Virus record (IMG/VR): IMGVR_UViG_3300008120_000130
Span: 1 to 37,926 of that record
Source: a virus
Taxonomy: Duplodnaviria > Caudoviricetes
Strand: one strand, 5' to 3'
DNA length: 37,926 nucleotides
Numbering within the stretch: position 1 is the first letter of the stretch; the number at the start of each line of letters is the position of its first letter. The notes below the pieces were generated by a model. It was not told where the DNA came from. It did no database searches and saw only the letters and a list, made by a program, of their open reading frames with translations. Below, piece after piece: positions 10,413 to 37,030 of this stretch. A program made the position numbers and the translations under genes.

Positions 10413-13400
10413 ATGTACAACGAAATTCAATTCAAAGCAAACTCTGGTCAGGTGAACATTGACCAAGCAGAAGGCATTGTTGAATGTTTCGTCGCTGGAA
10501 TTGGCAATAAAGACTCCGTTGGTGACATTGTTCTTTCAGGAGCATTTTCAAAGAGCCTTATGCGTCGCAAGCCTCGTGTTGTCTGGGGCCACAACTGGAA
10601 TGACCCAATCGGTAAGGTTCTAGAAATTTACGAAGTTCCACCTAGCGACCCGCGCCTTCCAGCAAAAATGAAGATGGCTGGAATTGGTGGCTTGTTCGCA
10701 AAAGTACAATTCAATCTCAACTCAGAAAAAGGACGAGAGGCATTTGCCAATGTTGCTTTTTTCGGAGTTGAACAAGAGTGGTCAATTGGATACAAAACGC
10801 TTGATGCAATTTTTGACAACACGCGCCAAGCAAACCTCCTAAGAGAGGTTGAACTTTACGAGGTTTCGCCAGTTCTTCACGGTGCAAACCAGTTGACTGG
10901 AACAATCTCCGTTAAGAGCGACGAAGAGAAGATGCACATGATGGGCGGCATGGGAATGCCTAGCACGATTGTTATTGCACGACCAGAAGACGAAGGTCCA
11001 CAAGAGCCTCGCGACCCATTCGCAATGGGTATTGCGCAACCTCTATCAGATGACCGTCGTGCAGGACTTCAGCAAGAACTGGTGAGCCGAACTGGTGGAC
11101 CAATTCATGTTCTTAAAGCAACTGAATCATCTGTTGTTTTCATGAAGCCAGGTCGTGGATTATTTAGACTCAGTTACTACTTTGACGGCGAGCAGTTCAT
11201 GTTCGGCAAGCCAGAGCCAATGGGTCAGAAGCCAGTTTCCGTAATTCCAAGCGTTGGACCAAAGCCAAATCTTTCTGGCCCAACTGCAATTCCTGGAATC
11301 AGCGGAAAGCCAAATATCCCGTCCCCAGCGATGCAGTATGCGTCACCACCTCCAACAGGAGATGCAAGTTTGGTCTTTGGGGCAGTACGACCAAAGGGCA
11401 CCGAGAAATCACTTGAAGAAGAAATTGATATGTTGCTTGAAAAGATTGATAGCGATGAAAAGATGTCAATTAAGTCGGATGCAATTGAAAAACTTAATTC
11501 AGTAGTGCGGACCCTTCAGGAAATCATTGGTGTTGAGACAACTGAAAAGTCTGAACTTCTAATTGAATGCGCCCCAGAGCACGCTTTTGAAGCAAAGCAA
11601 CTCCTTGACCCAGTTTTTGAATACCACCAAGTTGAAACGCTTGTCACGGAAAACGGAATCTTAATCACATCGGACATTGACCTTGACGCATACCAGGCAA
11701 TTGAGACTGCAACAAAGTCTTTGTTTGGGCGTATCGGGCGCAGAATAGGGCCTGGTGGTCCAAAAAAAGGTAGGCGCGCAACGCGCGCTCTCACCCAGAT
11801 AGACGGAGTCCTGGACCCGAAAAAGCGTCGCGATGTTGATGGCGACGGCATGATTTTTGATGGAACTTGGCGTGAAATGCCAGCCCCAGCAAAGCCAGCG
11901 ATGACAACTGGACTTCAATCCAGAAGGGCAAATACCGTTCCAACGGCTGAACCGAAGTTAAATGTTCGCCTCACTCGCACGCAAGCAACAAAAATGCTTG
12001 ATGGAATTAAAAAACTTTCTGGAAGCGAATCAGAAGGACCATTGAAGAACCTTCTTGACGAGATTGAGCGTCGCAAATACATTGGCGACCCAAACATTTC
12101 ACCAAGCATGCTTGATTCAGCGCTTGAAGAAATAAGCAAGCGAAAGTCAAACGGCGAGGCTGTTGACAAATTCCTTGAAGACGCATTGAACGAAATGAAA
12201 ACCACTGGTGCGTTTGGACAGAATAATGCCCGTAGTCGCGCTGGTAGGCCGACTGGTGCTGCGGCTCCAAAGAAAGAGGGACAGCAGAACTTCGCTGGGT
12301 ACTCGTTTGAGAAAGTGAAGCCAGAAGGTTGGGATTTAATGTCCCTTGAAGATAAAGAAAATTGGCTTGCCACATCCTCGTCTACCGCCAATTTGGCCAC
12401 ACGAGACAGAGACAGACTTCTTGCACAGGTGTACGAAGAAATGGACAGGCGTGACCGAAGGACTCAGGCTCGTCAGCGTGCGGCTGGACGCGCAGCATCT
12501 GCTCCAGAAGAAGCACCAAAACCAAAGCCAGAAGCGAAGCCAAAAGCAAAGCCAGAGCCAAAGGCATCACCGCAAAGTGATGACGACCTCACCATAGACC
12601 AGGCTCTATTGCGCAAAAATTACGCTTCTCTGACCGATGACGAAAAAGAAGAAGTTGATGCCTACGAGGCTGGAGTAATTGGCAAATTGACCGAACGCCT
12701 TCGCGCTACTAACGCCAAACTTAACGAGACTGGAAAGAACGATGTCGCCGAACTGGTGGACGGAACCCTCTCCGAGATTGACAATGCCCTTGGTGATGGA
12801 GCAACTAAAGAAGCCATAAATGACGCGCAAGACGCCATTGCAAAACTCCTCAAAGAACTGAACACTTCATACGGTCCAAAGCCAAAGAAGCCAAAGGCGG
12901 AGGAAGAGGGTCAAGAAGTAAAGCCAGACAAGATTTCTAGCGCTGCTGGAAAGTTTAGGAGTTATTTCACGACCGTCAACGAGGCCTTGGACAAGATGCT
13001 GGCACGCCGTGCATCGTCGGCCGATAGGGGCGACGAAGGAGAACTAGACCTCTCCGAGCGGGCGGTATCTGCTCGCGTTCGTGGTTTTGATGAAACAGAC
13101 ATACCAAATAGGTTTGAAAACTCGCTCAAGTTTGCTCGCTCATATCAGGATGCCCGTTCACGCCGTAAGACTTCTGGTGCTGGTATGGTTCGTCAGAACA
13201 GGACACCAGGCGGACTGCGTTCCGACAGGGGCAAAGTTGAACCACGCACGGAAATTATCGCTGAAGCCACATGGTGGAAGAAAATTGAAGACTCGCTTCC
13301 AAAGGAAATACGAGAAGCAAAAGACAAGGCAACATCTGACGCTCTTACTAGGCTGTCCACGCTTCTCAAGCGTCAAGAGTCTGGAAAAACTGGCTCCCGC

Positions 13401-13607: not shown

Positions 13608-13764
13608 TTTGACAAGAAATCGCGATTAAAGCGATAGTTCCGCCATATAACACGCGGTGAAGTATAATTTGTCAAATAGAAATTTTCATATAACGAGGTT
13701 AGTGATGTTGTCGCGTCAGCGACTTCGTTTCTTTCTGCGGCAACACTTCTAAGGAGTTAGTAAA

Positions 13765-15033
13765 ATGGGCGAGTACGGCGATAAAGCAGTAGTAAAGATT
13801 GATGCTGACGGTTCGGTGCTCAAGTGCGCTAAATCTCTTGGTGCCGATGAATGCGGTTTTACCCCTGGCGCAAAAGTTTGCGGTAAGTGCGGAGCAATGC
13901 CTGTTCAAATGAAGGCAATGATGGAAGAAGACGAAGAAGAAATGCCAGAAGAGGAAATGACTGAGGACATTTCTTCAGATGAGGAAATGCCTGCTCCAGC
14001 GCCAAAGAAGAAGCCTGCTATGGCGATGATGGACGAAGACGAAGAAGAGGAAGAAGAAGACGAAGAGGAAATGCCAGCGTCAAACGACATGGAAGAAATG
14101 CGCACTCGTCGTCTTGCCTCAATGGGAATGAAGTCCGCAGATGTTGGTCGCACTGGATACCTCTGCGCCGTTGACCGCAAGGTTTACCCAGGCGGAACTG
14201 GCGTGTGCGACGACTGCCCAGGTGGCTGTGTTTCCGAAAAGGGAATGCCAGGACTGCTTCATGTTGAAGGTCTTGCAGAAGACATGTTTGAAGGAAAAGT
14301 TCTTGATTCTGGCTACTCGGCAGAAGCAGACATGTTTGTCGTTGATGTTCAAGCAAAAGACGGTCGTGCAGTAGAAGTTTTCGTTGATGGAACAAACGGC
14401 GAAGTTCTTGGTTGGCACAAACTTGACCAAGACGCATTTGAGCAAAAGTCACTTCTTGATGAAATGATGCTCATTGACTTCAACGAAGCAGCAGAAATTG
14501 CGGTCAAGTCAATTGAGGGAAGCGTAGTTGCTGTAGAGCCAGATGTGTTTGAAGGCTACGACGCATACGCTGTTGAAATTGACGGCATTGATGGCAAGTC
14601 TTACGATGTGTTCGTTGCTCTTGACGGTGAAGTACTTGGATACGACAAGTACGAGCCAGAAGAAGCAGAAGACATTGAGGCAGAAGCAGCAGAGATTGCT
14701 CTCAAGCGTGCATTCACAGAAGACCAGCGCACTGCAATGGCAAAAGAGGGGAATGCACTGCCAGATGGTTCGTACCCAATCGCAAGCAAGAGCGATTTGC
14801 AAAATGCCATTTCCGCATACGGTCGCGCGAAGGACAAGGATGCTGCAAAGCGTCACATCATGAAGCGTGCAAAAGAACTCGGTGCTGAAAGCATGATTCC
14901 AGCGAACTGGGTTGCTGGTGGCGCAGAAATGAGCAAGAAGGATGACGACAGCATTGAAGTCGCTGACAACAGTTTCATGGCATCACTGCTTGAGTTTGAA
15001 TTGCTCAATGCCGAAGAAGATAACAACCTCTAA
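13765..15033 (+). CDS. Head-associated protein: Cys-rich modules, acidic linker, two PepSY-like repeats, C-terminal ALPDGSYPI domain
   Basis: C..C pairs, poly-E/D tract, two repeats ending (EV/DV)FV..(TN/D)GEVLG; the second starts IDFNEAAEIA as in PepSY. Confidence 0.7.
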   Translation: MGEYGDKAVVKIDADGSVLKCAKSLGADECGFTPGAKVCGKCGAMPVQMKAMMEEDEEEMPEEEMTEDISSDEEMPAPAPKKKPAMAMMDEDEEEEEEDEEEMPASNDMEEMRTRRLASMGMKSADVGRTGYLCAVDRKVYPGGTGVCDDCPGGCVSEKGMPGLLHVEGLAEDMFEGKVLDSGYSAEADMFVVDVQAKDGRAVEVFVDGTNGEVLGWHKLDQDAFEQKSLLDEMMLIDFNEAAEIAVKSIEGSVVAVEPDVFEGYDAYAVEIDGIDGKSYDVFVALDGEVLGYDKYEPEEAEDIEAEAAEIALKRAFTEDQRTAMAKEGNALPDGSYPIASKSDLQNAISAYGRAKDKDAAKRHIMKRAKELGAESMIPANWVAGGAEMSKKDDDSIEVADNSFMASLLEFELLNAEEDNNL

Positions 15034-15071
15034 AAAGAATCAAAAACAGATTCTAGAAATTGGAGCCCGTC

Positions 15072-18000
15072 ATGACGGGTAAATCACTTCGCCTTACACG
15101 CATGCTTGTAAGCAAGAAGTTTGCACCGCCAAAATCAGCAGACGAACGCGCTCTTGAATTCCTTGCATCCAAAAAAGAGATTGTTTCAAAATCCTTTGAC
15201 GCCGAACTTTCAGTTAAAGCACTAGGCAAAAATACTGGCAAGAAGCCGCCATCGGCCGACAACAAAGAAAAGCGCAAGAAGGGCAAAGGGCCAAATAAAA
15301 GATTTGGTCTTGCAGTTTTTGACCCTAATGCAAAAAAGAAAACAGGGCAGATTTTTATTCCCTGGATTGCACAGTGGGGGCGGACTGGAAGTGACGAGTA
15401 CCCAAACTTTGGCTGGATAGACCCTATTAAGGAACTAAAGCCAAACCAAACAAATGCCCGAATGTTTCAGGCCAGCGAGAAAAAGAAAAACGGAGTCAGC
15501 GTCACATACTCAGATGTTGTGCGCAATCCACGGACTGGCGAGTTTGATACGAAGTCTCTCGGACGAACGATTGGTCAGTTGGTTCCTGGCGGAGAAATAG
15601 CAACAAGAGCGGCTTCCGCGCTTGGTCTTTGGCAGGATGCTGCTGGGAAGTTGCGTTGCCCTCCTGGAGTTCCTGCTGCTAACCAATTCACCGACTCGTC
15701 TGGCTCAAACTGTTTTGACATTACCGAAGGAATGGCAAGCCGACTTTTGAGGTCTGCAATAAATCAAGGTATGTCATTGCTTGATGACATGTCACTCCTT
15801 AACGAAGCAATTTCTAGGCCAACAGTTCGTGATGGACGAGGCATGATTGAGCGTGAAAGGGAGTTGGAATCACTGCGAGAGATGCTAAGCGGCTCATCCG
15901 TAGTCCGTGGACTCGCCAGCGCAAAGCCTCGCAGAGAATTCACGAACGGCGAGCGAACTGTTTGGCTGCCCGCTGATGACATGGACCTTATTACAGAAGC
16001 CGCAATTGATGGCTTCAAGCCAACTGGTCGTGTTGATACACCTGCACCCACTAGACCAATTATAAAAGTTGATGCAGTTCCAGAGGAACCGAAGTCGGCG
16101 GATGACCTAATTGGTCCTGACTCATTGCCAATTTCGCGAATTGATGCCAAGTCTTTTGCCGAGGAAGTTCGTGCTCGCGTCCTTGACGCACACCCAGACA
16201 TTACGCCAGAAGAACTTAACAGAATAGTTATGCTTGCTGAACAGAAAGCAAGAATGACAGACGCCATGAATGGGCGGATTGATGTTGCGCTCCAATTGAT
16301 GAAGGACCTCGGCATTGATGTTGACCCAAGTAGCCCGCAAAGCGTTAGCGCTGGATTTATGCGGGCAATGGATGAACTTAGCAAGTCTGGGTGGGATATC
16401 AACTTTGAAAACACCCTCTGGACAGATGTTGACAGAACGCTTTCACGAGAAGAACAAGTTGCGCAACACCACGCAAATGTGCTGAACATGATTGTTCAGA
16501 ACATGGTCAAAGACCCAGAAGGAACACTTGAGGCGAGAGATGCTTCGGTAGTGAAGAGACTATGGGCTGGTCTAAGCAAAAAGAAAAAAGAAGAAGCAGT
16601 TCGTAATGCCACTATGGCGTATCTCAATGGAGATGCTCCAGAAACACTAAAAACAGACCTTGAAAAAGCGCTTCATCGCAACATGGCTCACAGAATGAAC
16701 AACTACCTTGCTGCTGAGCATGGATTTATGTTGGGCATGCTCGCAGAGCACAAGATGAATCCAGGGAAAGCCGAATTGCTCAAGCGCGTTGGCGTTATGG
16801 ACCCAATGGACCCACGCAACGAGGGTATTGAGGCAATGGTTATTCCAGACGCTGATGGGCAAATATCCATGCTGTGGAACCCACTTGGAATGATTCTTGC
16901 CGATAATCCACCAGCACCAAAGAATCCAAAAGCGTGGCGTCTATACGGAACCAGTGGCAGCGGTCTTGAAGTATCAAAAATTGCAGAAGTAAAGAAGACT
17001 GTTGATTCAGCGACAAAGATGGCAATGCTTAACGACATGTTGGGTGGTGATGTTTTTGATGCGATAAAAACTCACGGCTATATGGGCGATATCGCCAAGA
17101 AGCACGGAGGCTCAATCGGTCATGCAATGTTTGTCTTCCAACATGAATTGACGCATGCCCAGCAATACGCGATGGTCATGTACATGATTTCCCACGACAA
17201 AAAGGGTCGTCGCATAACTACCCTCTCAAATGTTGAACTTGCAAAACTTGCAGATGACATAATCACTGGAAATTTCCCTGGCTTGACGATGGAAATGCTG
17301 TTCGCTGACGAAAAAGCAATGGCAGCCGTTCATGGAAAAGTTGGCGTGGTCATGGACTCAATGGTCAGAGAGGGGATGTCTGGCATCTACCCAAGGATGC
17401 ACCTTGAGACAATGCACATCCTCAACAAGATAATGGGTCTTAAAGATGATGAACGACCAGGTTTTATCTCTGACCTTGAGGACAGATTTGCAACACTTCG
17501 CGAGCGGGCTGGATTTGATAAAGACCTAACGCCAGATGAACAGATGGAACTCAAAATCCTTAATCACGCAATCGGCACAATACGCGGAATTGATGAATTT
17601 GATGACGAGCAATTGCAGAATTCGGTTAGGACCCAGCGTGCTCTGATGTTTGCGGAGTCGGCAGCAGAGTTGAACGCCGCACGAGCAATGGGGATAATTG
17701 ACCCAACTGATGAAAAAGTGACTGCCGCACTTGCTCACCTTGATGCACCAATGGACAAGGTCGCAAAAGAAGTTGTAGCCGTAAAGGAATCAAAAAAACG
17801 CAAATGGCTTGAGCGTTTGGTTAGCGCTGTTGAATTATATGACGAGTTGAAGAACACAGAGTTTTCGCTTGAGCAAGCATCTTCTGGCGACGAGCCACTA
17901 ACAATAAATCTTGTTCGTAGGAAGCGCTGGCGCGAAGGCGACAAAATTTTCGTATCCGAAGATGTTGCTCCAGGGGTCCTTACAGTTTCCCTTGAGGAAA

Positions 18001-20807
18001 GAAGTGGGATACCCCGTGGGTTTTCAAAACTCACACCAGAAGGCGAGTATGAGCCATTGCGAGCAGGAGACATTCGCGGATTTGCTGAAGCAATGTTGCG
18101 TTCTGGGGTGGAAAAAACTAAACCATTTAAGGGTCGTGCATCAGCCCGCAGCCACGGCAAAAAAATGAGAGACGACCTAATGGCAACTGCTACGCCAATG
18201 GAAATTTCTGCTATGGAAAAGACCATGCCAGAGCGCATGGATGGAAGAATTCTCACAAGTCCTGCACATGTTTCATATTCGGTTGCCGAAAGCGCAAAAA
18301 TACGAAAAGGTTTGGCTTCAGGTAAAACATTTGACAAGCGCATTGAGGAAGATATTGCTCCACTTCTGAGCGTCATGGACAGACACGCGCTTGACGACGA
18401 CTACACGGTGATAATGGATATGGACATACCAGGTCGCGAGGGGTTGGTCACTGGCTCCTCGGTTGAAGTGTCCAACATGTTCAGAGGAATTATTGCTGAT
18501 AAAAAAACCGTGTTAACCCCAACTCGGGAAGAGTCTGGGACGAGAATGGTCCTCATGCTTCCTCGTGGAACTAGCGCAATCCCAGATGAAGATTTTATGC
18601 CTGGAAGAAACAAAGAAAAATCTTATTCAGCGCTACTCATGCCTCCTGGGAAAATTGAAGTCGTTGGTCGTCAAGATGATGGAACCATTGTCGCGCGTCT
18701 AGTTGAGCAGGCAAGTCCAAACGAAGTGCTTTCTAGCATGCGTGGGCCGTTGGAAGAAATTATTGCAAATCCAAACATTTCCGCATCACGCAAGATGGAA
18801 GCGCAAAAGGCTATTAATGCAATTGACGCTGCACGCTCAATCAACCTTCCAGTGGGCAAGCGCGGAGACGACCGAGTTGCGCGAATGTCATCAGTTGGGC
18901 TGTCATCTGCAAAAGACCGAATTGGAGCAAAGTCGCATAAGTACTTTGATGACGCATTGAAGCAGGTTGAAGAAGCAGCATCAACCTGGCAGGGCATGAA
19001 TCCATCAACAAAAAATGCAATCAAGTATGGAACTACAATCGCAATGACCGCTTCGTCTGCATGGCTCGGAAGAAAGAACACAAAAATATCCAACTGGATG
19101 GACGATTTTGACGAGCACGAAATTGACTTTGCAGAAGAACTGCTAAATGTCTGGGATGCTGGCGGACCAACTCTGGCCGCTCACACAATTGCAAGTACAA
19201 AAAACATGATTTACCAGGCACAGGACAGATTTGAGAAATCTGGAATGAAGGGTTCTGATTTCCGCGCAAAAGTTGATGACATGTTTAACGGAATCAAAAA
19301 AGACATTACTGAAAAATTGGCTAATGGAAACCGTCGCTTGGGTGAAATGTCAACCAATCTACGAACCAACTTTATGGAAAACATAAACAGGGCTCTTTCT
19401 TCAATGAAAAAAGAAAAAGTTGACGCTGCTGAAGTGGTTGAAATAGAGAGAGACCTTGGTCGTGGTCTTGCAAGTCGTCGCGGATATTCAGCAAACACAC
19501 CAAGCACAAAACCTCCAACTGGACTGGCTTCGCAAAAACACCCAGGCATCAAGCGACTTGCAAATGTGACTCCATTGAGGGCTCAAAAAGAAGGTGTCGC
19601 AGATGCTGGCGAACTTGACACAACTGAAGTTTCTTCATTGTTGAAAGATGAAATACTTACTGACATATTTGATATGGCTGATGAAGTTCCTGATAGAGGG
19701 CTTGCTAAGTGGATGAAGTTGAGGAAAGAAGCACTAAAAAAACCAAGCGAAAAAATTGTTTATACAGACAAAGATGTATTAGCGCGGGCAGCCAAGAGCG
19801 TCGTATCAGCACATATTGGCGATGCCTTGTCTGAACAATTCACCATTGAAGAACTTGTAGAGGCGGGAAAATTTCAAGCACAAGATGTTATCCCATATGG
19901 CATTGATGGAAATATTTTCCAAACTATTTCCGACATTGCTGATTCATACAAGAATGGGAATGGTGAGCCAGTAACTTTTTGGTATGTTCCAGAAACTGGA
20001 ACACTTGAGAAAGAGCGGTTCCGCGGAACAGACGGCGAGTACGAACCATACACTTCTGACTACATTGAATTTTCTTACCCAAGCGATGAAGGCAATAAAG
20101 CACTGTATGACTTTGCGGCATCAACATTGGTAAAACAGTGGCAAATAACATCAAATGATTCAAATGTCACAAGTCTAAGAGTCCAAGATGTTGCGCGCGA
20201 AATTTTTGAATTAAATGATTCGCTTGGTTGGCGCTCCGACATTCGTGACCGTGGCGCAGCCATGGTGTTGAGTCCAGAGGAGCATGTTTCGCTTCCAATA
20301 TCAGATGCACAAAAGAAATTGCTTACAGTTTTCATTAACGCTCAGTATGCTCAAACCCAAGAGTATTTAAACAAAAAGGGAATTAAAAAATTGACAGTTT
20401 ATAGAGGTTTTACTGATGATGCGCTTGAATACTCACTAAGCAATAATGGAAACTTCCCCGAAGATGGTATAACTGACGCAGAACTTGAACTTAGGCCACT
20501 GTCATCGTTCAGTGTTGACCCACGCATCGCATGGGCTTTTGGGCAACTGGTAATTGAATCTGAAATTGACGCCAAAGATGTAATTGCACTTCCGTTGACG
20601 GGAAGTGGATGCTTGAATGAATCGGAGGTTATTGTTTTAGGTAGAAGCGGACTAACTGGAACAATTAGAGCAAAAAATGATTTTGGTAAAAGACTGTCTA
20701 AGATTGAAGCAGAAAAGACAAGCGCCTTACAGGCGGCTGAACTTGACAAATTTGCTCAAGATTTGATTGACATTCCACCACCACCAGATTGGACTGGTGA
20801 TTTCTAA
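15072..20807 (+). CDS. Giant modular protein: CPxG tag, HExxH metallopeptidase-like region, C-terminal R-S-E ADP-ribosyltransferase-like domain
   Basis: ATG 15072 follows GGAG (the ORF track starts at 15060). HELTH at 17142; VYRG...LSSFS...ESEV at 20391-20640; five GLxS motifs. Confidence 0.75.
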   Translation: MTGKSLRLTRMLVSKKFAPPKSADERALEFLASKKEIVSKSFDAELSVKALGKNTGKKPPSADNKEKRKKGKGPNKRFGLAVFDPNAKKKTGQIFIPWIAQWGRTGSDEYPNFGWIDPIKELKPNQTNARMFQASEKKKNGVSVTYSDVVRNPRTGEFDTKSLGRTIGQLVPGGEIATRAASALGLWQDAAGKLRCPPGVPAANQFTDSSGSNCFDITEGMASRLLRSAINQGMSLLDDMSLLNEAISRPTVRDGRGMIERERELESLREMLSGSSVVRGLASAKPRREFTNGERTVWLPADDMDLITEAAIDGFKPTGRVDTPAPTRPIIKVDAVPEEPKSADDLIGPDSLPISRIDAKSFAEEVRARVLDAHPDITPEELNRIVMLAEQKARMTDAMNGRIDVALQLMKDLGIDVDPSSPQSVSAGFMRAMDELSKSGWDINFENTLWTDVDRTLSREEQVAQHHANVLNMIVQNMVKDPEGTLEARDASVVKRLWAGLSKKKKEEAVRNATMAYLNGDAPETLKTDLEKALHRNMAHRMNNYLAAEHGFMLGMLAEHKMNPGKAELLKRVGVMDPMDPRNEGIEAMVIPDADGQISMLWNPLGMILADNPPAPKNPKAWRLYGTSGSGLEVSKIAEVKKTVDSATKMAMLNDMLGGDVFDAIKTHGYMGDIAKKHGGSIGHAMFVFQHELTHAQQYAMVMYMISHDKKGRRITTLSNVELAKLADDIITGNFPGLTMEMLFADEKAMAAVHGKVGVVMDSMVREGMSGIYPRMHLETMHILNKIMGLKDDERPGFISDLEDRFATLRERAGFDKDLTPDEQMELKILNHAIGTIRGIDEFDDEQLQNSVRTQRALMFAESAAELNAARAMGIIDPTDEKVTAALAHLDAPMDKVAKEVVAVKESKKRKWLERLVSAVELYDELKNTEFSLEQASSGDEPLTINLVRRKRWREGDKIFVSEDVAPGVLTVSLEERSGIPRGFSKLTPEGEYEPLRAGDIRGFAEAMLRSGVEKTKPFKGRASARSHGKKMRDDLMATATPMEISAMEKTMPERMDGRILTSPAHVSYSVAESAKIRKGLASGKTFDKRIEEDIAPLLSVMDRHALDDDYTVIMDMDIPGREGLVTGSSVEVSNMFRGIIADKKTVLTPTREESGTRMVLMLPRGTSAIPDEDFMPGRNKEKSYSALLMPPGKIEVVGRQDDGTIVARLVEQASPNEVLSSMRGPLEEIIANPNISASRKMEAQKAINAIDAARSINLPVGKRGDDRVARMSSVGLSSAKDRIGAKSHKYFDDALKQVEEAASTWQGMNPSTKNAIKYGTTIAMTASSAWLGRKNTKISNWMDDFDEHEIDFAEELLNVWDAGGPTLAAHTIASTKNMIYQAQDRFEKSGMKGSDFRAKVDDMFNGIKKDITEKLANGNRRLGEMSTNLRTNFMENINRALSSMKKEKVDAAEVVEIERDLGRGLASRRGYSANTPSTKPPTGLASQKHPGIKRLANVTPLRAQKEGVADAGELDTTEVSSLLKDEILTDIFDMADEVPDRGLAKWMKLRKEALKKPSEKIVYTDKDVLARAAKSVVSAHIGDALSEQFTIEELVEAGKFQAQDVIPYGIDGNIFQTISDIADSYKNGNGEPVTFWYVPETGTLEKERFRGTDGEYEPYTSDYIEFSYPSDEGNKALYDFAASTLVKQWQITSNDSNVTSLRVQDVAREIFELNDSLGWRSDIRDRGAAMVLSPEEHVSLPISDAQKKLLTVFINAQYAQTQEYLNKKGIKKLTVYRGFTDDALEYSLSNNGNFPEDGITDAELELRPLSSFSVDPRIAWAFGQLVIESEIDAKDVIALPLTGSGCLNESEVIVLGRSGLTGTIRAKNDFGKRLSKIEAEKTSALQAAELDKFAQDLIDIPPPPDWTGDF

Positions 20808-21100
20808 TGAAAATAAGAATTGACAACGGACAAGATAATTCAGACTGGATTAAGGTCAATGCTTTTGATTTCCCTGGAATTAAAACGCTTAAACAATTTT
20901 ACAAGCATTTCAATATTCCAGAAAAAGAACCAGAAAAATCCAAGGCAATGCGATACCTAGCAACCATGAGTTGGGTGAATATTGCACCAGATGAGATTCG
21001 TCAAGAGTTGATGAAATACGCACCAGGCACGCCAGAGCCGTGGGAAAGCGTGTCAAACTATAGGTTGAGCCGTCGCCTAAAAGAGCAGGATAAGAAGTGA
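20807..21100 (+). CDS. Small hypothetical protein, candidate partner/immunity for the upstream ART domain
   Basis: 97 aa, TAATG overlap upstream and GTGA overlap downstream; function inferred from position only. Confidence 0.65.
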   Translation: MKIRIDNGQDNSDWIKVNAFDFPGIKTLKQFYKHFNIPEKEPEKSKAMRYLATMSWVNIAPDEIRQELMKYAPGTPEPWESVSNYRLSRRLKEQDKK

Positions 21101-25385: not shown

Positions 25386-25998
25386 GCAGCAAAAGGCAGA
25401 CCCACTCGGCGGGATAATCCCTCAAGAGCGTGTTACTGGTGACATTCTCAAAGGACGCGGCCCTCGTCGCGGAAACCTTGAAAGGCTCTTGCGTTATTGG
25501 CGTCCAATCATGAAAAAGCCTGGCGGCTTCCGCCGTTGTCGCGTAATACTCGCAGACCATCCAGAACTTTATCCGCTTGAGAACATTTGCGCATGGCTGC
25601 ACCATGAAACAACTGGTCTCTGGCCCAACGAAGGATGCCATCACCCAGACATGAAAAACTGTAAGGGCAAACTAAAGAAGAACAACTGGACAGACGCAGA
25701 CTTTGTCCGTCGTCTTTCAAAGCCAATCAATGCTCCAGGAAAACTTGGAGGCAAAAGCGCATATGAAGACGATGTTTTCTTTGCACCTAGCGAGTGGCGC
25801 GAATACGAGAGCAAGTCAAATCCAGTAGTGACTCAGGAAGACCTTTCACATGCCATGAAGGTGCTTGCCGACTTTGTTGAGATGGAACCAGATTTCTCCG
25901 ACTATCTTCGTGATAACGACAACTGGGAAACCGAAGGCGAGTCACTGGATGGGAAGATGATGACCGCCCCATACACGCCAACAAAGTGCTGCGACTAG
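25375..25998 (+). CDS. Phage head-module protein with Cys/His motif
   Basis: L.RYW...PGGFRRC...CAWLH..TTGLWP...CHHP...C. Confidence 0.7.
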   Translation: MSNEQQKADPLGGIIPQERVTGDILKGRGPRRGNLERLLRYWRPIMKKPGGFRRCRVILADHPELYPLENICAWLHHETTGLWPNEGCHHPDMKNCKGKLKKNNWTDADFVRRLSKPINAPGKLGGKSAYEDDVFFAPSEWREYESKSNPVVTQEDLSHAMKVLADFVEMEPDFSDYLRDNDNWETEGESLDGKMMTAPYTPTKCCD

Positions 25999-26013
25999 AT
26001 ACGGAATATTTAA

Positions 26014-28062
26014 ATGCATGAACTAATCACGGAAATCAAGACGCTTGAATTTGCAAGTGCTTGCTGTCCAAACTCAATGCTCACGAAAGTGCGTGTTGTA
26101 TTTGCAGCGCAAAAATCAGCACCGAATAATGTCATGCGGTCTTTGCCTGCAAACCGTGGAGAGTTGATTACATTTAAGGCGCTCGCAAAACGCAATGGTC
26201 GTATGCGTGAGTACGAAGTGAAGCGAGTCGGTACAGTCGGCTCAAGCAATCCGCTATTACAAGGCGTGCAGGCTGCTGGTTCAATGGCGCTACCTGGTGA
26301 CTCAAGTATCCTAAGGAGTCCAATACGAAGCACTGTTTTTGGCGCACTCACCCCAGGTATGCCAAGTATCCCTGGAATTCCTGGTCGTGGTCTTGGTGGA
26401 CGAGACAGGACATACCACTGCCCAGAGGGCTATCAGTACGGTGGTCGTTTTACGGACAAGAAGTTTTCCAACTGTGGAGCAAAACTATTTGACATTGCTG
26501 GTCCACTTGGTCTTGCTATTGCTGCAATACGAGCAGTACGAAATGCCGCTAGACCTAGCGATTTGACGCAGGGTGAAGTTCTTGGAGCGGGTCAATATCC
26601 AGAAAGCATTGTTGACTCTCGCAAACCGCAAATCCCGAAAGTCTCTTTGTCTAATCCACAAAAACTGAAACTTGAAGTTGACAAACTGGTAACTCCACTC
26701 GGTAAGCAATCCGAGCCAGTCGCGAGAATGGTGAGACGAGACGGATTTGTTCTAGAACCAGTCGTTCCTGCATCAGTTTTAAGAACGATTCCAGACAACA
26801 GGGACATGGAAGGCGCAACATACATTGCAAGCCACCTCAGCCCAGACACAATCGGAAAAGACGAACTAGGTCTTCTTTCCAATACTGGAATCCAGAGTTT
26901 GAAGTATGTTCTTCCTGGTGGCTCAACGCTCACCCTTGAAAAGAAGCGACCACTTACGGTCGGAGAGCGTCGCAAACTTGGTCGTACTGTAAATGCTGCA
27001 ATTGCTTCGTCAAACGATAAAGACCCAGCATCACGATTGAAGATGGTTGCCACTGAAACTGGCGACGGAATTGGATACAGCGAAAAATTCGTTGGCATCT
27101 CAAACCCGAACAGCGTTGGACCAGACGGCAAAGAGCGCTGGGCATCTACGGTGTTTGGCAAGAAGCGCCCAGCACAGCAAGACACTCAACAGGAAGCAGC
27201 ACCAGTACAGGCGGCTGCCACAGGACAGACGGATATCGGAACCGTTGATGGGGCAATTAACCACATCAAGAATGGCGGAAATCTTGCCGATATTGCGCCA
27301 GACATTCTTCAAGAGGTACTCAAGAAGATGCGTGAAATCAAGACGCAAAAAATCAACGACCGTCAGTCGCTTGTGTCAATGCCTAACGGCGACAAACTGT
27401 TGCTCAATTCGTCTGCCAACAATTTTGACCACATTGGACAGCGTTTTGCATCAGAAATTCAAGAGCACCTTGGAATCAAGGCTCCAGACATCTTCTTCGT
27501 TGGTGTTGGTGATAAGCGAAACTACCTTGCACAAGACGCTGAAACAGCAATTCGTGGAGCAAAGATTGACAGGAACTCCAAGTTCGCTGACTCCAATCCA
27601 ATGGATGTAACCAGGTTGATGTTTGCAGACATCCTCACGGACACGAGGAACCGAAACATAGGGACAATTTCGTTGCTTTCTGGGAAAGACAACAAGTACA
27701 TTCTTGCCACATCAAACCCTGGCTCTGGACTTACTGGTCTTGATGAAATATCAATTACAAAGCGCACCAAGATGGGTATTGAGGAGTTGCTCAACCCAGA
27801 CGAGGCTTCTGTATACATAAATTATTTCCAAGCCCTCAAAGAACTACAGCGGGCTCAGTACCAGCAATTTATTGCTACACTTATTCAGAGGGCAAGAGCC
27901 TTTAATTTCAGCAACTTTAAGTCAAACCTTTACAAAGACGGAAAATTGTCTCAAGGCGAAAAAATTCACTTGAACATCCTTGAGAAATTGTTTAATCAAC
28001 GCCTAGGTCGTTTGACAAATGCAAGAGATTCAATCTACGAAATTGTGAGCGCTAAGAAATGA
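26014..28062 (+). CDS. Modular protein: CPxG tag and degenerate HipA/PI3-4-kinase-like C-terminal domain
   Basis: Tag at 26419; FASEI..HLGI.APD...D.LTD.RNRN..TI resembles the D.L..N.DRH..N kinase motif with substitutions. Confidence 0.65.
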   Translation: MHELITEIKTLEFASACCPNSMLTKVRVVFAAQKSAPNNVMRSLPANRGELITFKALAKRNGRMREYEVKRVGTVGSSNPLLQGVQAAGSMALPGDSSILRSPIRSTVFGALTPGMPSIPGIPGRGLGGRDRTYHCPEGYQYGGRFTDKKFSNCGAKLFDIAGPLGLAIAAIRAVRNAARPSDLTQGEVLGAGQYPESIVDSRKPQIPKVSLSNPQKLKLEVDKLVTPLGKQSEPVARMVRRDGFVLEPVVPASVLRTIPDNRDMEGATYIASHLSPDTIGKDELGLLSNTGIQSLKYVLPGGSTLTLEKKRPLTVGERRKLGRTVNAAIASSNDKDPASRLKMVATETGDGIGYSEKFVGISNPNSVGPDGKERWASTVFGKKRPAQQDTQQEAAPVQAAATGQTDIGTVDGAINHIKNGGNLADIAPDILQEVLKKMREIKTQKINDRQSLVSMPNGDKLLLNSSANNFDHIGQRFASEIQEHLGIKAPDIFFVGVGDKRNYLAQDAETAIRGAKIDRNSKFADSNPMDVTRLMFADILTDTRNRNIGTISLLSGKDNKYILATSNPGSGLTGLDEISITKRTKMGIEELLNPDEASVYINYFQALKELQRAQYQQFIATLIQRARAFNFSNFKSNLYKDGKLSQGEKIHLNILEKLFNQRLGRLTNARDSIYEIVSAKK

Positions 28063-31000
28063 AGCAATACGCAATCCTAAAAGACGCAATCCGAAATGAA
28101 AACTTCGGAATAGTTGTCAAGTCTGACGAAGCAACAAAGTTTTTTGGATTTACCGAGCACGGCGCGGAATGGTCCAAGTGGGCAAATAGCGTAAAAAGCG
28201 CAGAGTCAGTACTCCCAGACGGAATCACTGTTGGCGAATTCAAGACCTTGACTGAGGATATTTTGGTCAAGTTTGATATTGACTCATCTGATATTGAAGT
28301 TAAGTCAGAAGTGTTGACTGAATCCCGCAGGTTCAATAAGTTCGTTGAGTCAAAGTCGCTTAACAGCGCTTCAAAGTTGGTCAGTATCTCGGACAGCCCA
28401 ATTAACGCTTGCGGGATACACCACCAGACAGCAATTAACTTCAAGGCTCGTTTGTTCCGTGGAGAGCAGACAAGAGGCGAATTGGCACTCAAGTCAAGAT
28501 TTGGACAACTTGCTTTCAACCATGAAATCAGTCGTTTCAATCCACGACCAAACTCTGAAACAAAGAGTATTGAATTTGCAAACATCCGAAAGAAAATTAA
28601 CTCTGGTGCAGAGCGCCGATTCGGCCAGCAGATTGTCAAGTCAATCAACAACTCAATATCTGAAGTAAAAGTTGAAGACGACTGGATGAAGCGTCGTGGA
28701 AAAGTTGGAATCAACACTTCTGAAATAATTGATTTCCACGAAAAGGGTCTTGGACGAGCAATTGGCCGTGCAATATTCGGTCGCGGTCGCGGTCGCGGTC
28801 GCGGAATGGGCGGCAATGCAAGCAGATTTATTGCTGGTGTTACGGACCCAAGCAAGCGCCGAGATGTTGACGGCGACGGAATGATTTTTGATGGCACATG
28901 GCGAGAAATGCCAGACCCAACAAGATTTAAGCCAGGCGCACGAGTACCAAACAGAATGCCTGGTGGCGGAGCACAGCGCCCATACAGGCCTGGCCAAGAT
29001 ACTGGCGCTCCAGCAATGGTTGACGACCTTTCAGACATGGATTCAACGACATTGCTGATAGAACTAAATCGTATTGACAACGCCATATATCCATTTAGTG
29101 GTGATGTAACAAAACCTCGTCAGGATAAAGAACGCGCTGTAGCAATTAGAAAAGAATTGCGAAAACGAGGACTTTCCTACAGGGACATTGAGGCACAACA
29201 GAGAACCGTAGGACCAGGAATGGGCCTAGGCGTTGGGATGCGCGAAGACCCTGCGCTTGACAGGCTTTCCGCTGACTTGCGTAAGCGATATGGGCGCGGT
29301 CTCGCCTCGCAGCGCGGTGACAAGAAACCAAATGCGACGCCAACAAGCAAGCCTGCGGAAAAGCCGAAAGACCCTTCAAAGATGACGAAGGAAGAAATTG
29401 ACGACCTTCTCTATGACTTAAGGGAAGATTGGAGGCAGCGTAAGCGTTCAATGGAAGCAGACCTCGGCGAGGACATGTTCTATTGGGAAGATGAAGAAAT
29501 CGCAAAGCGTTTCATGGATGACTATGGAATGACAAAGCGCGAAGCCGATAAGGCGGTTGACGAATATCGTGACCTTTACGACGAATACACCGAAGCACAG
29601 ATGGAGTATGACGAGCGTCGTGCCGAACTTCTTGACGCAAAAGAGAAGGCACCGTTTGCCGACGATGTTGACGAAACTGGCGATGAACCACAACAAATGC
29701 GCGGACTCCGTTCAGCCAAAGACGAAGTTAGCGACAACATTATTGAAGAACTCCTTGATAGGGCCGATGGGGCAAATGATGGAATCACTCCATTGTTGGA
29801 AAAACTCAAGAAGAACAAGTTGTCAGATGATGAAAAGTCAGACCTTCTTGAAATGCTTAACGACGAGTTCAAAAACGGCGACCTTGCTGGCGACGAAAGA
29901 CTTGACAAGTTAATCAAGAAGATTAAGAAGCAGAAACAGTCTGATGGCGGACTGGTTGAGCCAGACCTCCAAGGTCTTCGTGACCAGTTCGGTAGTCGCG
30001 GATTGAGTTCCCGTCAGCAGCGAGACATCCAGAAGTTTGGTCGCGCATTCTCGCCTGGCACGGACCCAAGCAACCGAGAAGTTATTGACGAACTTCTTGA
30101 AAGTGCCGAGGGAGCAAACGACCCAATTACGGACAAACTCCGAAAATTAAAACTGTGGCCTCGCCTTGACGACAATGAAAAAGCAGACATTCTTGAGGAC
30201 CTCACAAACGAGTACAACAATGGTGAACTCGCTGGCGATGACCGTTTGAAGAAATTGATTGATGACCTTTCCGACAGTGGAAATGCAACAATCTTCCCAG
30301 ACCTCTCGTCAAGTCGCTACGACGCTGGATACACACCAGAAGCAGAAAGAGAATTCCTTGATTCCGTAATTGAAGAACTCTCCCAAGATGGTGGGCCGTT
30401 TGAAAGCGGTTTCACAAACGAAGATTCAGAAGCATTGATGAATGCATTTAGGGAGCCAGGCGATTCACCGCGTGGACTTGCTTCACGCCGCGATAGCAAG
30501 CCAGCGAGTGCTGCGAAGAAAATCATGTCTCGCAACTTTGAAAGTTCTGAATCTGGTGGTGCAGATTTGGATTCTGGCATTCGTCAAGTTGCTCAAAGTC
30601 TTGGCATGGATAAAGATGCAGAAGACAAACTTTCCAAACTGATTTACGACATCGCTGAGCCAAGAACTGTTAGTCGTCCAGAAACAAGCGACGAGTCAAT
30701 TGACAAAATAACAAAAGACAAGACACAGCGAGAAGTACTAAAGGCTGCAGTTAACGAATTTACAAACTTGACCAATCCTGAGAGAATTACTTCCCCAGAT
30801 GCGGCAAAGCGAATAATCCGAGATGGATTTAGAAGCACACAATCGGGTGGTGCCGACTTGGATTCTGGTATTCGTGGAGTTGCTCGTGGATTAGGCCTTG
30901 ATTACGACGCACAAAACGAACTCTCAAGCCTTGTCTACGACATCGCTCAATCAAAGCCAAAAGCAGTAAAGAAGATAGATTCACTTCCTGATGAGTTGAC

Positions 31001-34010: not shown

Positions 34011-34030
34011 GGAAATAGGAGGTAGTTATC

Positions 34031-34423
34031 ATGAAGAATCTTTCTGAAGGCGTAAAAGCACACATGGCATACGCGGAGATGCGTGACGAAATGGTTGAAC
34101 TCAAGGCGTACCCACCATTTAGCACCATGCCAAAAGACCCAAACGGTGATTTGGTGTTCCCGAGGATGAGTGCCATTGGGGAAAAATTTGACGCAGCAAT
34201 CAGGAAAGAAATGGACCGCATTCATTCGCTCTCCAAAGATGCAGAAACAGAAAAAGATTTAACCCCAGAAATGTTTTCGCGTCCATTCTCAACACTGTCA
34301 ATTGAGTTTGCTGACGACCTGGAAGAGGCAAGACTTTACAAAAAGCGCTACAACGACCCAGTCGTTGCGCTTGAGGCTGCACAAGAAATTTACAAGGAGC
34401 CAGAAACCGAGCCAAAAAAGTAG
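34031..34423 (+). CDS. Small acidic hypothetical protein (candidate partner/immunity)
   Basis: 130 aa, strong AGGAGG RBS, directly after the kinase-like domain. Confidence 0.7.
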   Translation: MKNLSEGVKAHMAYAEMRDEMVELKAYPPFSTMPKDPNGDLVFPRMSAIGEKFDAAIRKEMDRIHSLSKDAETEKDLTPEMFSRPFSTLSIEFADDLEEARLYKKRYNDPVVALEAAQEIYKEPETEPKK

Positions 34424-34432
34424 GTTTAGGTA

Positions 34433-37030
34433 ATGGCTGATGTAGAAAAATCAGAAACAAACAGCAAAGCGTTTGCTCTTCGTATTGCGCAGAATATTGG
34501 TTGTACTGGCGCGCATAAAAAAGACGGCAAGTGGATGCCATGTTCAACCATGGAAGAATTGCGGGAAATCTCCGCAAGTGCTGAACCAAAAAAGAAAACT
34601 GCGCTAGTAGAGGTTGAAGAAAGATTCAAAAGGCGAAGCCGAAAAGGCAAGAAGCGCCAATGGGAGAATCTTGGGCAAAGAGGGGTCGCTGGAATTGATG
34701 CGATGGAGACTGGCGGAATTGTTTCTGCCCCAATAGTTTCCGTTAAAGCAGGAATACCAGGTCTTGCGCCAAGAGACAGCGATGATGATGTCTATACCGA
34801 AATTGAATCTGCAAGAAAGCGTTCTGTTCGCTTGGGTTGCATTGGCGTAAGACGGCTTGTTTCACAAAGTGGGCGAACGGTATGGATGCCGTGCACAACC
34901 AACACTGATTACGCAAGACTTGCTGGAACCACAGCCCTTGGCAGAAGGCATCAGCGTCAAGCAGCAAACTTGGCAATTAGAAAGATTGTTAGCGAGCAAC
35001 TCAAGAACCCTCGTCGCAAAAAATCTTTGTTTGACGAAATGTACGAAGAAAAAGGATTGGGTCGCGCAATCGGTCGCGCTGTTGGCTCTGGCTCAAGGCG
35101 AGGAAAAATCCGTCGTGCTATTGAAGTCATTGACGGAATTCTTGACCCACGACTAAGGCGAGATGTTGACGGAGACGGTTTCATCTTTGATGGAACATCA
35201 AGAGAAATGCCAGACCCAACTCGCGCAATTCCAGATACTGGCGAAGGACTCACATCAATGCGCCGCTCGGACAACAGACTTTCTGATTACCGAGACAGAG
35301 GCGTAGAGGCTTACGACCCAACAAAGCCAAAGAAACCAAGCAAGCCAACAAGAGTTAATCCATCTGATATTTCTGTTGGCGGAAACTTGAAAGCAAGAGA
35401 AATCTTGCTTTCCGACAGACTGCGCAATAGAAGCCGACAGGACCAGGCAACCATGCTTGGTATTTCTGTTGATGTTATTGAGCAGATGGAAAAACCAGAC
35501 GCAACAATTGACCCATACGCAGCAGACAGACTCGCTGATGCGCTGAACCTTCACCCAACTGCAATTTGGGGCGATGATTGGCTAAAGCCAGATGTGACTG
35601 AAGAAGCCACTCCGAAAAGAACACGGAAAATGCGCGAACTTGATGACAGGGATAGACAAATCCTCAAAATGCGTGATGAAGGTAAGACGCTTGACGAAAT
35701 AGGAAAAGAATTAGGGATTACAAAAACTCGCGTAAACCAACTGCTCAAACGAGCAATTGAATCAAACTCGCGTGAATTTGATAAAGGCTCAAGGAAGCCA
35801 AATACAATTCCAACTAGAGTTGCAAAATCATCTGGAATGGTTAAGCGTGATGCTACTGGAAAAGTAATTATTGAAAAAGATGTGCGAAAAGAAGTTTTTG
35901 ACAAGACTGTTGAAAGTCTCAAAAAACTAGGAATGACAGAAGATGAAATCAACATTCTTCTTGGCGGAAAACGAGAAGCAAATGTAACTCCTGAGTCAGC
36001 AAACGCCCCATCGGTATTAATGCTTGACAACCAAATGACTGGTCTAAGAAGCGCTCGCAAGAAGAGCATTCCACCATCAGAATGGCCAGAGAGCGAAAAG
36101 AAGCATTACCTCAACTGGGCAAATGCACGACCAAGTTTCGTTGTTCCATACAGCCTTGTCGTCAAGTACAACAAAGATAAGTTTTTGTCCGATAAGGACT
36201 GGAGACTCCTAAAGCAGTTTTACGACCGCTATGGTGCAAACTCTCGTTCACGGAATGTGACCCCAATGGGTCTCCGTTCAACATCAACATACACTGGGAC
36301 ACCAAATGTTGGTGCGAAAAGAATGGGACAAATCATTCTTGGCCGCGTGCAATCCAAGTTCAAGGGCGAAAGACCAGGACAGCGTAAACATCACGCAATT
36401 ATTGGTGCTCCAGGAATGGGCAAGACGAGCCTTTACGACTTCCTTTCGCGAACAGCGATAATCCCTGGCGACTCAGAAGCGGCCCATATTGACCCAGACT
36501 TCGTGAAACAAGGAATGGAAGGGTACAACGGAGGCGCTGGTGCTGGAAACATCCACAGAGAATCGGCAATGGCGGCAATGCACATTTACAGGGATGCCGT
36601 GAAAGAACAGATGGACATTGTGACCGAGGGGACTGGCAAACGCCTTATGGACTACCTCAATCTGGCTAAAGGGTACGAAATGGTTGGGCATGCGGCATGG
36701 ATTCCTCCGTCTGGTGCAAAAGAAAGAATTCGTAAACGAAAACTGGAAGATGGGCGAGAAATAGCCGAATATATCGTTGACCATATCGCCGATGTTTCAT
36801 ATGACCTGGTCGCTCGCCACCTCCGAAACGGTGAAATGAGCAGTTTTTACCTCTGGGATACCGATGTTCCAAAAGGTGCTGCACCAAAACTGATTGCAAA
36901 GGTGGAGGGCGGCGTTTTCGTTGTCAACGATGAAGACAAATTCAAATCCTGGTCAACTGGTGGTCGCGGTGGCTCAAATGGAGACAAAAATCTGTCCTAC
37001 TTCAAGAAGAAATACGCTAAATCACAATAA
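34433..37030 (+). CDS. Modular protein: two GC.G..WMPC repeats, DGDG tag, XRE-like HTH, sigma70-region-4-like HTH, C-terminal zeta-toxin-like P-loop kinase
   Basis: GAPGMGKT, IDPD.VK, HRES, EGTG, A.ER...R...GR; LDDRDRQIL.MR.EG.TL.EIG.ELGITK.RV.Q. Confidence 0.8.
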   Translation: MADVEKSETNSKAFALRIAQNIGCTGAHKKDGKWMPCSTMEELREISASAEPKKKTALVEVEERFKRRSRKGKKRQWENLGQRGVAGIDAMETGGIVSAPIVSVKAGIPGLAPRDSDDDVYTEIESARKRSVRLGCIGVRRLVSQSGRTVWMPCTTNTDYARLAGTTALGRRHQRQAANLAIRKIVSEQLKNPRRKKSLFDEMYEEKGLGRAIGRAVGSGSRRGKIRRAIEVIDGILDPRLRRDVDGDGFIFDGTSREMPDPTRAIPDTGEGLTSMRRSDNRLSDYRDRGVEAYDPTKPKKPSKPTRVNPSDISVGGNLKAREILLSDRLRNRSRQDQATMLGISVDVIEQMEKPDATIDPYAADRLADALNLHPTAIWGDDWLKPDVTEEATPKRTRKMRELDDRDRQILKMRDEGKTLDEIGKELGITKTRVNQLLKRAIESNSREFDKGSRKPNTIPTRVAKSSGMVKRDATGKVIIEKDVRKEVFDKTVESLKKLGMTEDEINILLGGKREANVTPESANAPSVLMLDNQMTGLRSARKKSIPPSEWPESEKKHYLNWANARPSFVVPYSLVVKYNKDKFLSDKDWRLLKQFYDRYGANSRSRNVTPMGLRSTSTYTGTPNVGAKRMGQIILGRVQSKFKGERPGQRKHHAIIGAPGMGKTSLYDFLSRTAIIPGDSEAAHIDPDFVKQGMEGYNGGAGAGNIHRESAMAAMHIYRDAVKEQMDIVTEGTGKRLMDYLNLAKGYEMVGHAAWIPPSGAKERIRKRKLEDGREIAEYIVDHIADVSYDLVARHLRNGEMSSFYLWDTDVPKGAAPKLIAKVEGGVFVVNDEDKFKSWSTGGRGGSNGDKNLSYFKKKYAKSQ
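35144..35218 (+). repeat. DGDG tag copy 4 (DPRLRRDVDGDGFIFDGTSREMPDP)
   Basis: Dispersed in-frame peptide repeat. Confidence 0.95.

Follow-up and report, generated by a model that had tools for sequence, protein, structure and literature searches.

The virus record IMGVR_UViG_3300008120_000130 (Duplodnaviria; Caudoviricetes), analysed here over its whole length of 37,926 bases (the window), carries on the + strand a portal gene, a gene for an S78 prohead protease with an extension of 890 amino acids (aa), ten more genes and the start of the capsid gene. Several of these genes encode giant proteins in which a short G-L-x-S motif recurs, which raises the question of what the motif is for and what reads it. 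We found that GLxS is a phage-specific peptide tag placed at module joints of the giants of the head operon and, in relatives of the phage, in the tape measure protein. The tag is real, family-wide and more structured than initially described. Judged from sequence comparison, and with a probability of about 0.5, the tags are cut sites of a zincin metallopeptidase located in the first giant (Giant 1); cutting would release the cargo enzymes, probably once the proteins have been ejected.

An earlier, sequence-only reading of the window had listed 16 GLxS sites, and all of them were found in place and in frame in four open reading frames (ORFs) of the + strand: the C-terminal extension of the protease, an anchor followed by cargo (10941-13607; GLQS 11910 and GLRS 13212), Giant 1 (15060-20807, formerly ORF15072 and renumbered here as ORF15060 from an upstream TTG; tags at 15909, 18309, 18897, 19464 and 19521), ORF28059 (28059-34010; 29298, 29703, 30000, 30474, 31077 and 31407) and ORF34433 (34433-37030; 35246, 36041 and 36269). 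A 17th true site absent from that list, GFRS 30825, stands where the second of two module copies begins and brings the tags of ORF28059 to seven; the giant ORF21097 (1,271 aa) has no GLxS site. Enrichment, proposed as a check on these sites, was clear: the 13 head-operon ORFs (9,718 aa) contain 18 GL.S matches against a mean of 4.22 and a maximum of 12 in within-protein shuffles (0 of 1000 reached 18), with GLAS found 8 times (0.39 expected) and RGL.S 8 times (0.28 expected). The control patterns GL.T (1 vs 2.9) and GL.A (1 vs 5.2) were not enriched, and the 11 ORFs of the opposite strand (2,482 aa) gave 0 GL.S matches, with 0.91 expected. Among 80,000 possible gapped triplets GL.S ranked third (p 4.6e-7, about 0.04 after correction). 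In the relatives it was found 127 times vs 36 in 89 dereplicated head-strand ORFs (of 249) and 2 times vs 8 in 99 opposite-strand ORFs; chance or low-complexity bias was rejected on the strength of these counts and the shuffles. The two extra matches in the window, GLLS 9419 in the portal and GLLS 26869 in ORF26014, belong to conserved core proteins and probably have no signal function; the one in the portal is shared by portals of relatives that lack the tag.

The sequence-only reading had also stated that codon use varies and that Arg often precedes the site. The 17 sites are indeed encoded by 17 distinct 12-mers, with Ser from both TCN and AGY codons, and Arg precedes 8 of the 16 listed ones. 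The codons bear on the notion that the tag is a by-product of linker duplication or recombination at the DNA level and has no reader at the protein level. Some linkers are alike in DNA (3 copies of 26 nt around RGLAS) and modules are duplicated, but the variety of codon strings, which are distinct in 32 of 37 cases in another genome (G044; G-numbers are labels for related genomes), and the recurrence of the phage's own spelling in an unrelated gene some 20 kb distant, that of the tape measure, have largely refuted this notion, and we give it next to no credence.

Protease-to-capsid cassettes were assembled from 50 relatives and searched de novo for punctuation motifs with a look-elsewhere correction; 50 of the 59 loci wanted were read, the incomplete cassette of G010 was left out, and G008 and G014, which are near-identical to the window, as well as G064 were not used as cassettes. 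A motif with E<0.05 was obtained in 37 cassettes, and G005 and G055 carried the motif of their own group at E 0.1-0.2. The spellings comprised GLAS/GLRS, LASST, LRSSG, LASGR, LSSG, FSSG, GMRS, STRS and GSKST, and in an M-type group ISGRM, LSGSM, DSGAM, PSGSM and VVGAM. Throughout the 50 cassettes, the same spelling is found within a phage at module boundaries of unrelated proteins. When 11 strict patterns were counted in 11 phages the matrix was nearly diagonal, GMRS for example occurring 37 times in G018 and 0 times in the other ten, and in the alignment of ORF34433 orthologues identical joints carry GLRS, LRSS, LASS, LRSG, GMRS or GFRS depending on the phage. One spelling shared by unrelated genes and changing between genomes would point to a reader acting in trans and changing along with the phage. 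The patterns of individual phages were derived from the cassettes, so the counts in giants are descriptive; those in tape measures and whole genomes, given below, are independent. A fixed Gly was rejected, given the variable spelling and the lack of enrichment of G[LFM][SAR]S (3 vs 1.4) in G002, whose tag is LSSG, and a prepilin-peptidase site (G|F pattern) was rejected because no hydrophobic helix follows the tag. No paper describing the tag was found in the open-licence literature, a coverage that leaves most subscription journals outside. In G017 the head cassette (27543-90800, about 60 kb) encodes 20,148 aa of protein, including an ORF of 6,466 aa, punctuated by DSGAM.

That the sites stand at module boundaries, as the earlier reading had it, was confirmed both in the window and among the relatives. 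In ORF34433 a DUF3721 anchor is followed by tag 35246, a pair of helix-turn-helix (HTH) domains, tag 36041, a small helical module, tag 36269 and a zeta-toxin-like P-loop kinase, and the terminal segment of Giant 1 (19521-20804) contains a DRAT-like ADP-ribosyltransferase (ART) match (PF07357, 4.8e-6, segment residues 276-374). The HTH pair, the zeta domain and the ART thus each lie inside one motif-bounded segment, the ART match beginning 275 aa past its motif. A set of 147 giants (295,243 aa) contains 572 tags with a median spacing of 196 aa. Internal homology starts within -5 to +25 of a tag in 270 of 1,654 cases, against 105 for circularly shifted tags (maximum 136 in 500 shifts), and ends near one in 271 of 1,723 (128 with shifted tags); seen from the tags, 214 of the 572 lie near a homology start, against 89. 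Hydrophobicity is lower in tag flanks than at other positions (0.19 vs 0.28), and tags are sometimes just 5-20 aa apart. In the AlphaFold2 (AF2) model of ORF34433 the three tags fall in blocks with a predicted local distance difference test score (pLDDT) of 28, 24 and 29, weak evidence when taken alone because 380 of the 865 residues score below 50. A Pfam scan of 126 tag-bounded segments, taking in 105 of 152 segments of relatives, left the majority without a match, and the domains recognised in relatives (Nudix, RNase_T, ArdC-N with a metallopeptidase (MPTase) domain, KTSC, Clp_N, DnaJ, WYL and ART) lie intact inside their segments.

The N-terminal parts of the giants differ from the cargo. 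The first 120-240 aa of ORF21097, ORF28059 and ORF34433 exist as free-standing small genes in other lineages, so these parts are conserved anchors to which cargo has been appended, usually after a K-GLGRxIGR run and a module of the form DP..RD.DGDG.IFDGT.REMP (the DGDG module). The latter occurs in four copies on the + strand (11811-11867, 21592-21648, 28842-28898 and 35141-35197) at the anchor-cargo junction, the copy in the protease extension lying between the anchor and the first tag, and again at the N-terminus of a giant of G001 encoded outside the head operon (80836). It has no Pfam match; by eye we take it to be EF-hand-like, and it is a candidate encapsidation or linker module. Tags are internal, repeated and almost missing from anchors, unlike the capsid targeting sequence of the T4 type, which is short, single, N-terminal and lost on maturation.

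The head proteins carry a second signal. The ends of the S78 domain (10413-10940, + strand; PF04586, 1.3e-10) have a hydrophobic residue and Lys followed by Ser, Ala or Asp (QFK-A, Lys at 10434; SVK-S, Lys at 10914), the C-terminal site being kept in nearly all 50 relatives. Such sites recur in the delta domain of the major capsid protein, which is partial at the window end (37177-37926, + strand; EFK-S 37507, GVK-D about 37597): EFK stands in nearly all rows shown of the alignment and all 47 capsid proteins aligned have the Lys of VK-D. In N-termini the Lys-site pattern reaches 2.1-2.3 times expectation in tagged and tag-less phages alike, and 1.1 times elsewhere. HK97 is cleaved at K103/S104 (PMC10275583, in the part available), and the Lys sites would, by sequence, be the natural targets of S78. 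Tags, in turn, number 0 in 37 capsid proteins, 0 in 39 S78 domains and 0 in 39 M207 proteins (M207 and K682 are our names for core proteins), and 4 in about 30,000 aa of anchors; in the main cargo parts their density is 1.7-3.2 per 1000 aa.

S78 could also cut the tag, as a second, relaxed site (G-L-x|S) during head maturation, in which case the cargo would already be in pieces in the virion. GLRS, GMRS and GSKS fit a hydrophobic or small residue and a basic one before Ser, S78 heads a tagged polyprotein and, as described below, its divergence is the best tracker of tag distance; prohead proteases of other large phages are also described to cut ejection proteins (PMC10052503, in part). In the accessible part of the same source, the SPN3US prohead protease gp245 cuts after AXE and its substrate cuts, bar self-cleavage, all remove N-terminal propeptides. 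The catalytic core of S78 is moreover the same whether a phage uses GLAS, ISGRM or DSGAM or has no tag, with 67 invariant columns out of 190 among the 50. The expected substrates of S78 bear Lys sites and no tag, the tag being absent from the capsid delta domain and the protease ends and not confined to prohead proteins, and tape measures are tagged yet assembled outside the prohead. We therefore consider cutting by S78 quite unlikely. The sequence-only reading had suggested as enzymes the prohead protease or HExxH domains; the former is thus disfavoured, and we prefer the HExxH domain of ORF15072.

Tape measures assemble in the tail, outside the prohead, and are ejected. In 19 tagged phages they contain 32 tags of the phage's own spelling vs 4.2 expected, spread over 15 of the 19 proteins at about residues 36-44 and 575-830, foreign spellings averaging 0.30 per protein vs 1.68 own ones. 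The test was prompted partly by GLAS matches in the tape measure of G001, and the tape measure of G060 was missed by the selection step. Other tail-region ORFs near tape measures (88,512 aa) gave 9 vs 7.9, and 9 tape measures of zincin-less phages, with a pooled pattern, 16 vs 13.3. Nine genomes read wholly or largely have the tag confined to head giants, the tape measure and two stand-alone giants, with a few single matches elsewhere in G002 and G017. The stand-alone giants carry their own phage's tag outside the head operon in G001 (80836-90900, 3,355 aa) and G059 (3,077 aa), and are probably further virion cargo. The tail assembly and ejection of tape measures speak for a reader encountering every ejected protein and count against both the prohead protease and a capsid-binding tag. 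A capsid-binding tag is further disfavoured by its absence from anchors and by tag class, which requires 11 changes on the capsid tree vs 7 on that of K682.

Every one of the 39 tagged cassettes has a giant with HExxH at residue 400-750, whose gene lies downstream of that for the PepSY protein or, in G030, of that for the protease. In Giant 1, composed of an anchor, an RCPxG Cys module, the zincin and cargo, the zincin domain (16362-17834, + strand) lies within the 800-aa segment between GLAS 15909 and GLAS 18309, with HELTH at 17142-17156 and the third ligand Glu at 17655. Among 49 aligned zincins the two His, the Glu and the distal Glu are the sole invariant columns, at a mean column identity of 15%, and HExxH is kept in 142 of 143 library matches covering the site, the sole broken motif (HGFTH) being that of P0123 (1,023 aa). 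The phage's own tag never falls inside the zincin core (0 in 39 of 39), and Gly|Leu cleavage would suit the hydrophobic P1' preference of many zincins. Presence of the tag coincides with that of the zincin: all 39 cassettes with an intact HExxH zincin in the first giant carry it (37 significant de novo), and none of the 11 zincin-less ones do. Giants persist in the latter, each with a cargo part of 1,700-3,900 aa; known spellings occur there 12 times vs 11 expected in 31,366 aa, the frequency in tagged phages being 0.7-3.5 per 1000 aa. An alternative tag in this group was rejected, as the de novo matches represent the RCPxG module, proline-rich or ERxAQ repeats and a helical K.I.D pattern, the last enriched in tagged phages as well. 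In G035, the sole tag-less genome read whole, 10 of 70 families shared by tagged genomes are missing with G002 as reference and 9 of 60 with G053, and Giant 1 is the only HExxH bearer and the only recognisable protease among them. Two other roles were also considered: the second HExxH, in ORF21097, was rejected as reader because the gene is reduced to a 130-170 aa anchor in many tagged phages, and the PepSY protein as a dedicated zincin inhibitor was not supported, being found in zincin-less phages too.

A number of observations weigh against cutting by the zincin. The 39/11 split of zincin and tag falls on one branch, with 1 change on each of three trees (concatenated, K682 and PepSY), and amounts to about one independent contrast; it needs 3 changes with the capsid tree and 4 with that of M207. 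The zincin profile found nothing record-wide in the 11 tag-less records, one of them complete (G035), but it also missed two divergent true members (G017 and G046), so its silence does not prove absence. In Mantel tests, with G003 left out, tag distance correlated with the distances of S78 (rho 0.75, partial 0.43) and K682 (0.74) better than with that of the zincin (0.55, partial 0.12-0.18), the zincin partial correlation being not significant without the M-type lineages; zincin distances are saturated (median 3.5), so the test is blunt, and it gives the zincin no support. In favour of the zincin, three phages whose S78 are 81-88% identical use GMRS, STRS and GSKS, and their zincins share 26-32%. 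The tag is missing from 4 of the 19 tape measures and from the N-terminal 319 aa of that of G008, the closest relative, the record of the window excluding its own tape measure. An upstream tag flanks the zincin in 16 of 39 giants (a downstream one in 37 of 39), zincins also occur as plain cargo (ArdC-MPTase), and GLRS and GMRS resemble Lys sites, GMKS being present in the portal and the PepSY protein.

By fold, the AF2 model of the zincin domain (pLDDT 80.5) is closest to anthrax lethal factor, whose catalytic domain matched it with Z 10.1, rmsd 3.8, 186 residues aligned and 12% identity. This was the single match with Z>=8 among 48,161 chains, but the model is mostly helical, and Z values below about 13 can be frequent in such models. 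Behind it came related domains and, at Z 6.3-6.7, Pro-Pro endopeptidases, and the likeness to the lethal-factor fold is accordingly suggestive. Also to be set against it, Foldseek searches of PDB and BFVD with the model returned nothing at E<=0.001. Nothing usable or significant for the zincin came from a PDB sequence profile, Pfam, NCBIfam and the ESM Atlas, PF18818 was not matched, no Pfam MPTase-PolyVal match exists in the clade, and tblastn against cultured phages gave no match. Lethal-factor-like and Pro-Pro endopeptidases are sequence-specific and share with the phage domain HExxH and a distal Glu; they differ from it in sequence (8-12% identity, Z 6-10), the phage domain has no visible delivery domain, and a shared fold does not show function.

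Two more explanations were weighed. The tag might be cut by a host protease or an unrecognised phage protease; the lineages may infect different actinobacteria, WhiB being found in 5 of 5 genomes, and several small families restricted to the tagged group are unannotated. We judge this very unlikely, as the spelling follows the phage lineage and shifts among close relatives, which suits a co-evolving phage enzyme, and 11 such small families were scanned without a peptidase family match. The tag might also stay uncut and serve, like a translocation signal, as a recurring handle that a phage-encoded reader binds so that proteins exiting through the tail are threaded, unfolded or sorted. The proteins bearing it (giants of the head operon, stand-alone giants and the tape measure) are those one would expect to be ejected, and its regular spacing and poorly hydrophobic flanks agree with such a function. 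The tag-less relatives, however, retain giants of 1,400-2,600 aa and tape measures without any tag, the tags sit at domain joints, some of them nearly adjacent, and the sole enzyme-like gain of the tagged group is a protease, so the handle seems unlikely. The earlier reading had left the choice between a polyprotein processing site and a translocation signal; its protein-level signal at module boundaries in low-confidence linkers was supported, and processing, judged from sequence, is the best interpretation here too.

In the model with the zincin as cutter, the N-terminal anchors would load the giants into the procapsid, S78 would trim anchors and scaffold at the hydrophobic-Lys|Ser/Ala sites, as in HK97 at K103/S104, and the giants would exit with the tape measure through the tail. 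The zincin of Giant 1 would then cut at the tags and free the ART, the zeta-like kinase and the HTH module and, in relatives, Nudix, exonuclease and ArdC modules. Cutting after ejection would fit because cutting in the cytoplasm of the producing cell would detach cargo from its anchors before packaging, and because the tape measure would be out of reach of an enzyme confined to the head; it is also conceivable that the cuts are made at two places during assembly.

Parts of this scheme have precedents. Phage-type polyvalent proteins, for which Iyer et al. 2017 (PMC5512222), in the part available, propose autoproteolytic processing by a zincin, before packaging or after injection, are likewise multidomain giants encoded next to head genes, and their domains include zincin MPTase, ART, kinase, ArdC and HTH. 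Several effector domains per chain are found here too (HTH pair and zeta in ORF34433, zincin and DRAT-like ART in ORF15060), as are HExxH with a distal Glu and a location between S78 and the capsid gene in 50 cassettes. The words GLxS and linker have 0 occurrences in the main text of PMC5512222, and the part available gives no recognition site; the present system differs in a defined phage-specific site common in trans to several genes and the tape measure, and in a zincin that is not PF18818. P1 DdrB/DarA and the MPTase of the N4 virion RNA polymerase are large virion-packaged proteins with a zincin domain as well, but with one cut or none and no punctuation code described in the part of PMC5512222 at hand. 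The portal, S78 protease, capsid protein with N-terminal delta domain and conserved Lys sites are shared with HK97 (PMC10275583, in part), which has neither the second signal, unrelated to scaffold removal, nor the cargo genes that here fill about 24 kb between the genes for protease and capsid. Substrates of T4 gp21 and, in the accessible part of PMC10052503, of SPN3US gp245 also show a short motif common to many virion proteins, with ejected cargo proteolysed, but those prohead proteases remove N-terminal propeptides, whereas here the sites are internal, 2-20 per chain, lineage-specific and present in a tail protein too. A conserved zincin in jumbo-phage maturation has been speculated upon in the available part of PMC7824862.

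Taken further, these phages may form a double-stranded DNA phage family that uses an RNA-virus-like polyprotein strategy at infection, with 7,000-20,000 residues of enzymes packaged as few chains, ejected with the tape measure and cut in the host by a co-injected zincin whose site is rewritten per lineage, a proposal we hold tentatively and lean against. If true, it would add a second, post-entry protease code to prohead maturation and offer a natural library of site-specific proteases, more than 100 of them, that are divergent, may be orthogonal and have sites that can be read from the genome. Dozens of natural pairs of enzyme candidate and site make the idea of zincin processing testable by a reporter assay without phage culture. 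The tag itself parses giant unannotated ORFs into modules (572 sites, 147 proteins) and flags proteins that are probably ejected, and, being one signal that ties head cargo to the tape measure, it bears on the post-entry handling of ejected proteins.

The phage family is common in IMG/VR: about 920 stretches there fit the protease patterns, the top 80 with 79-100% identity, and complete genomes of relatives measure 128-172 kb. Among cultured phages, those of Gordonia and Brevibacterium have the nearest proteases (39-44% identity); with a best identity of 44% there is no close cultured member. Together with WhiB in all five relative genomes tested, this suggests that the host is likely an actinobacterium. 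The tail sheath model PF17482 matched 0 of 5 relative genomes, and a word-indexed protein search gave 10 proteins, mostly near-identical to window proteins.

The remaining features of the window lie on the + strand unless stated otherwise. The portal (8300-10315; PF04860, 2.7e-51) has no functional tag and ends in GFAS; the acidic Cys/PepSY protein (13765-15033; PF03413, 2.8e-6) is conserved, untagged and present in tagged and tag-less phages. ORF21097 (21097-24912), untagged, consists of an anchor, a DGDG module and a second HExxH (23029), a second zincin present in most long forms of the gene in relatives. Two conserved core genes of 207 and 682 aa (25375-28062) occur in tagged and tag-less phages alike. 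The 207-aa protein is fused to the prohead protease in tag-less G035, G047, G051, G052, G056, G057 and G063 and to the PepSY protein in G061, which suggests a role in head maturation. The 682-aa protein (26014-28062) has an RCPxG/HCPxG Cys module, and its C-terminus resembles by eye a degenerate HipA/PI3K-type kinase without a library match. ORF28059 starts with an anchor rich in Lys sites and contains two duplicated modules and a C-terminal HipA/PI3K-like domain, a lead only. A 196-aa module bounded by tags (18309-18896) has no Pfam match, and by eye we take it to resemble a degenerate VIP2-type ART. The capsid tree conflicts with the cassette trees in grouping LSSG lineages with M-type ones; it is a quick tree with modest support, and the conflict suggests recombination at the capsid gene boundary. 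Small genes of 97, 161 and 130 aa (20807-21100, 24900-25385 and 34031-34423), without matches in Pfam and NCBIfam scans, directly follow giants that end ART-like, unknown and kinase-like, and possibly encode immunity proteins. On the - strand (448-2966), a ParB-like gene, a PAPS-reductase gene and a ParB gene (PF01507, PF02195) form a trio of the kind typical of a phage DNA-modification cluster.

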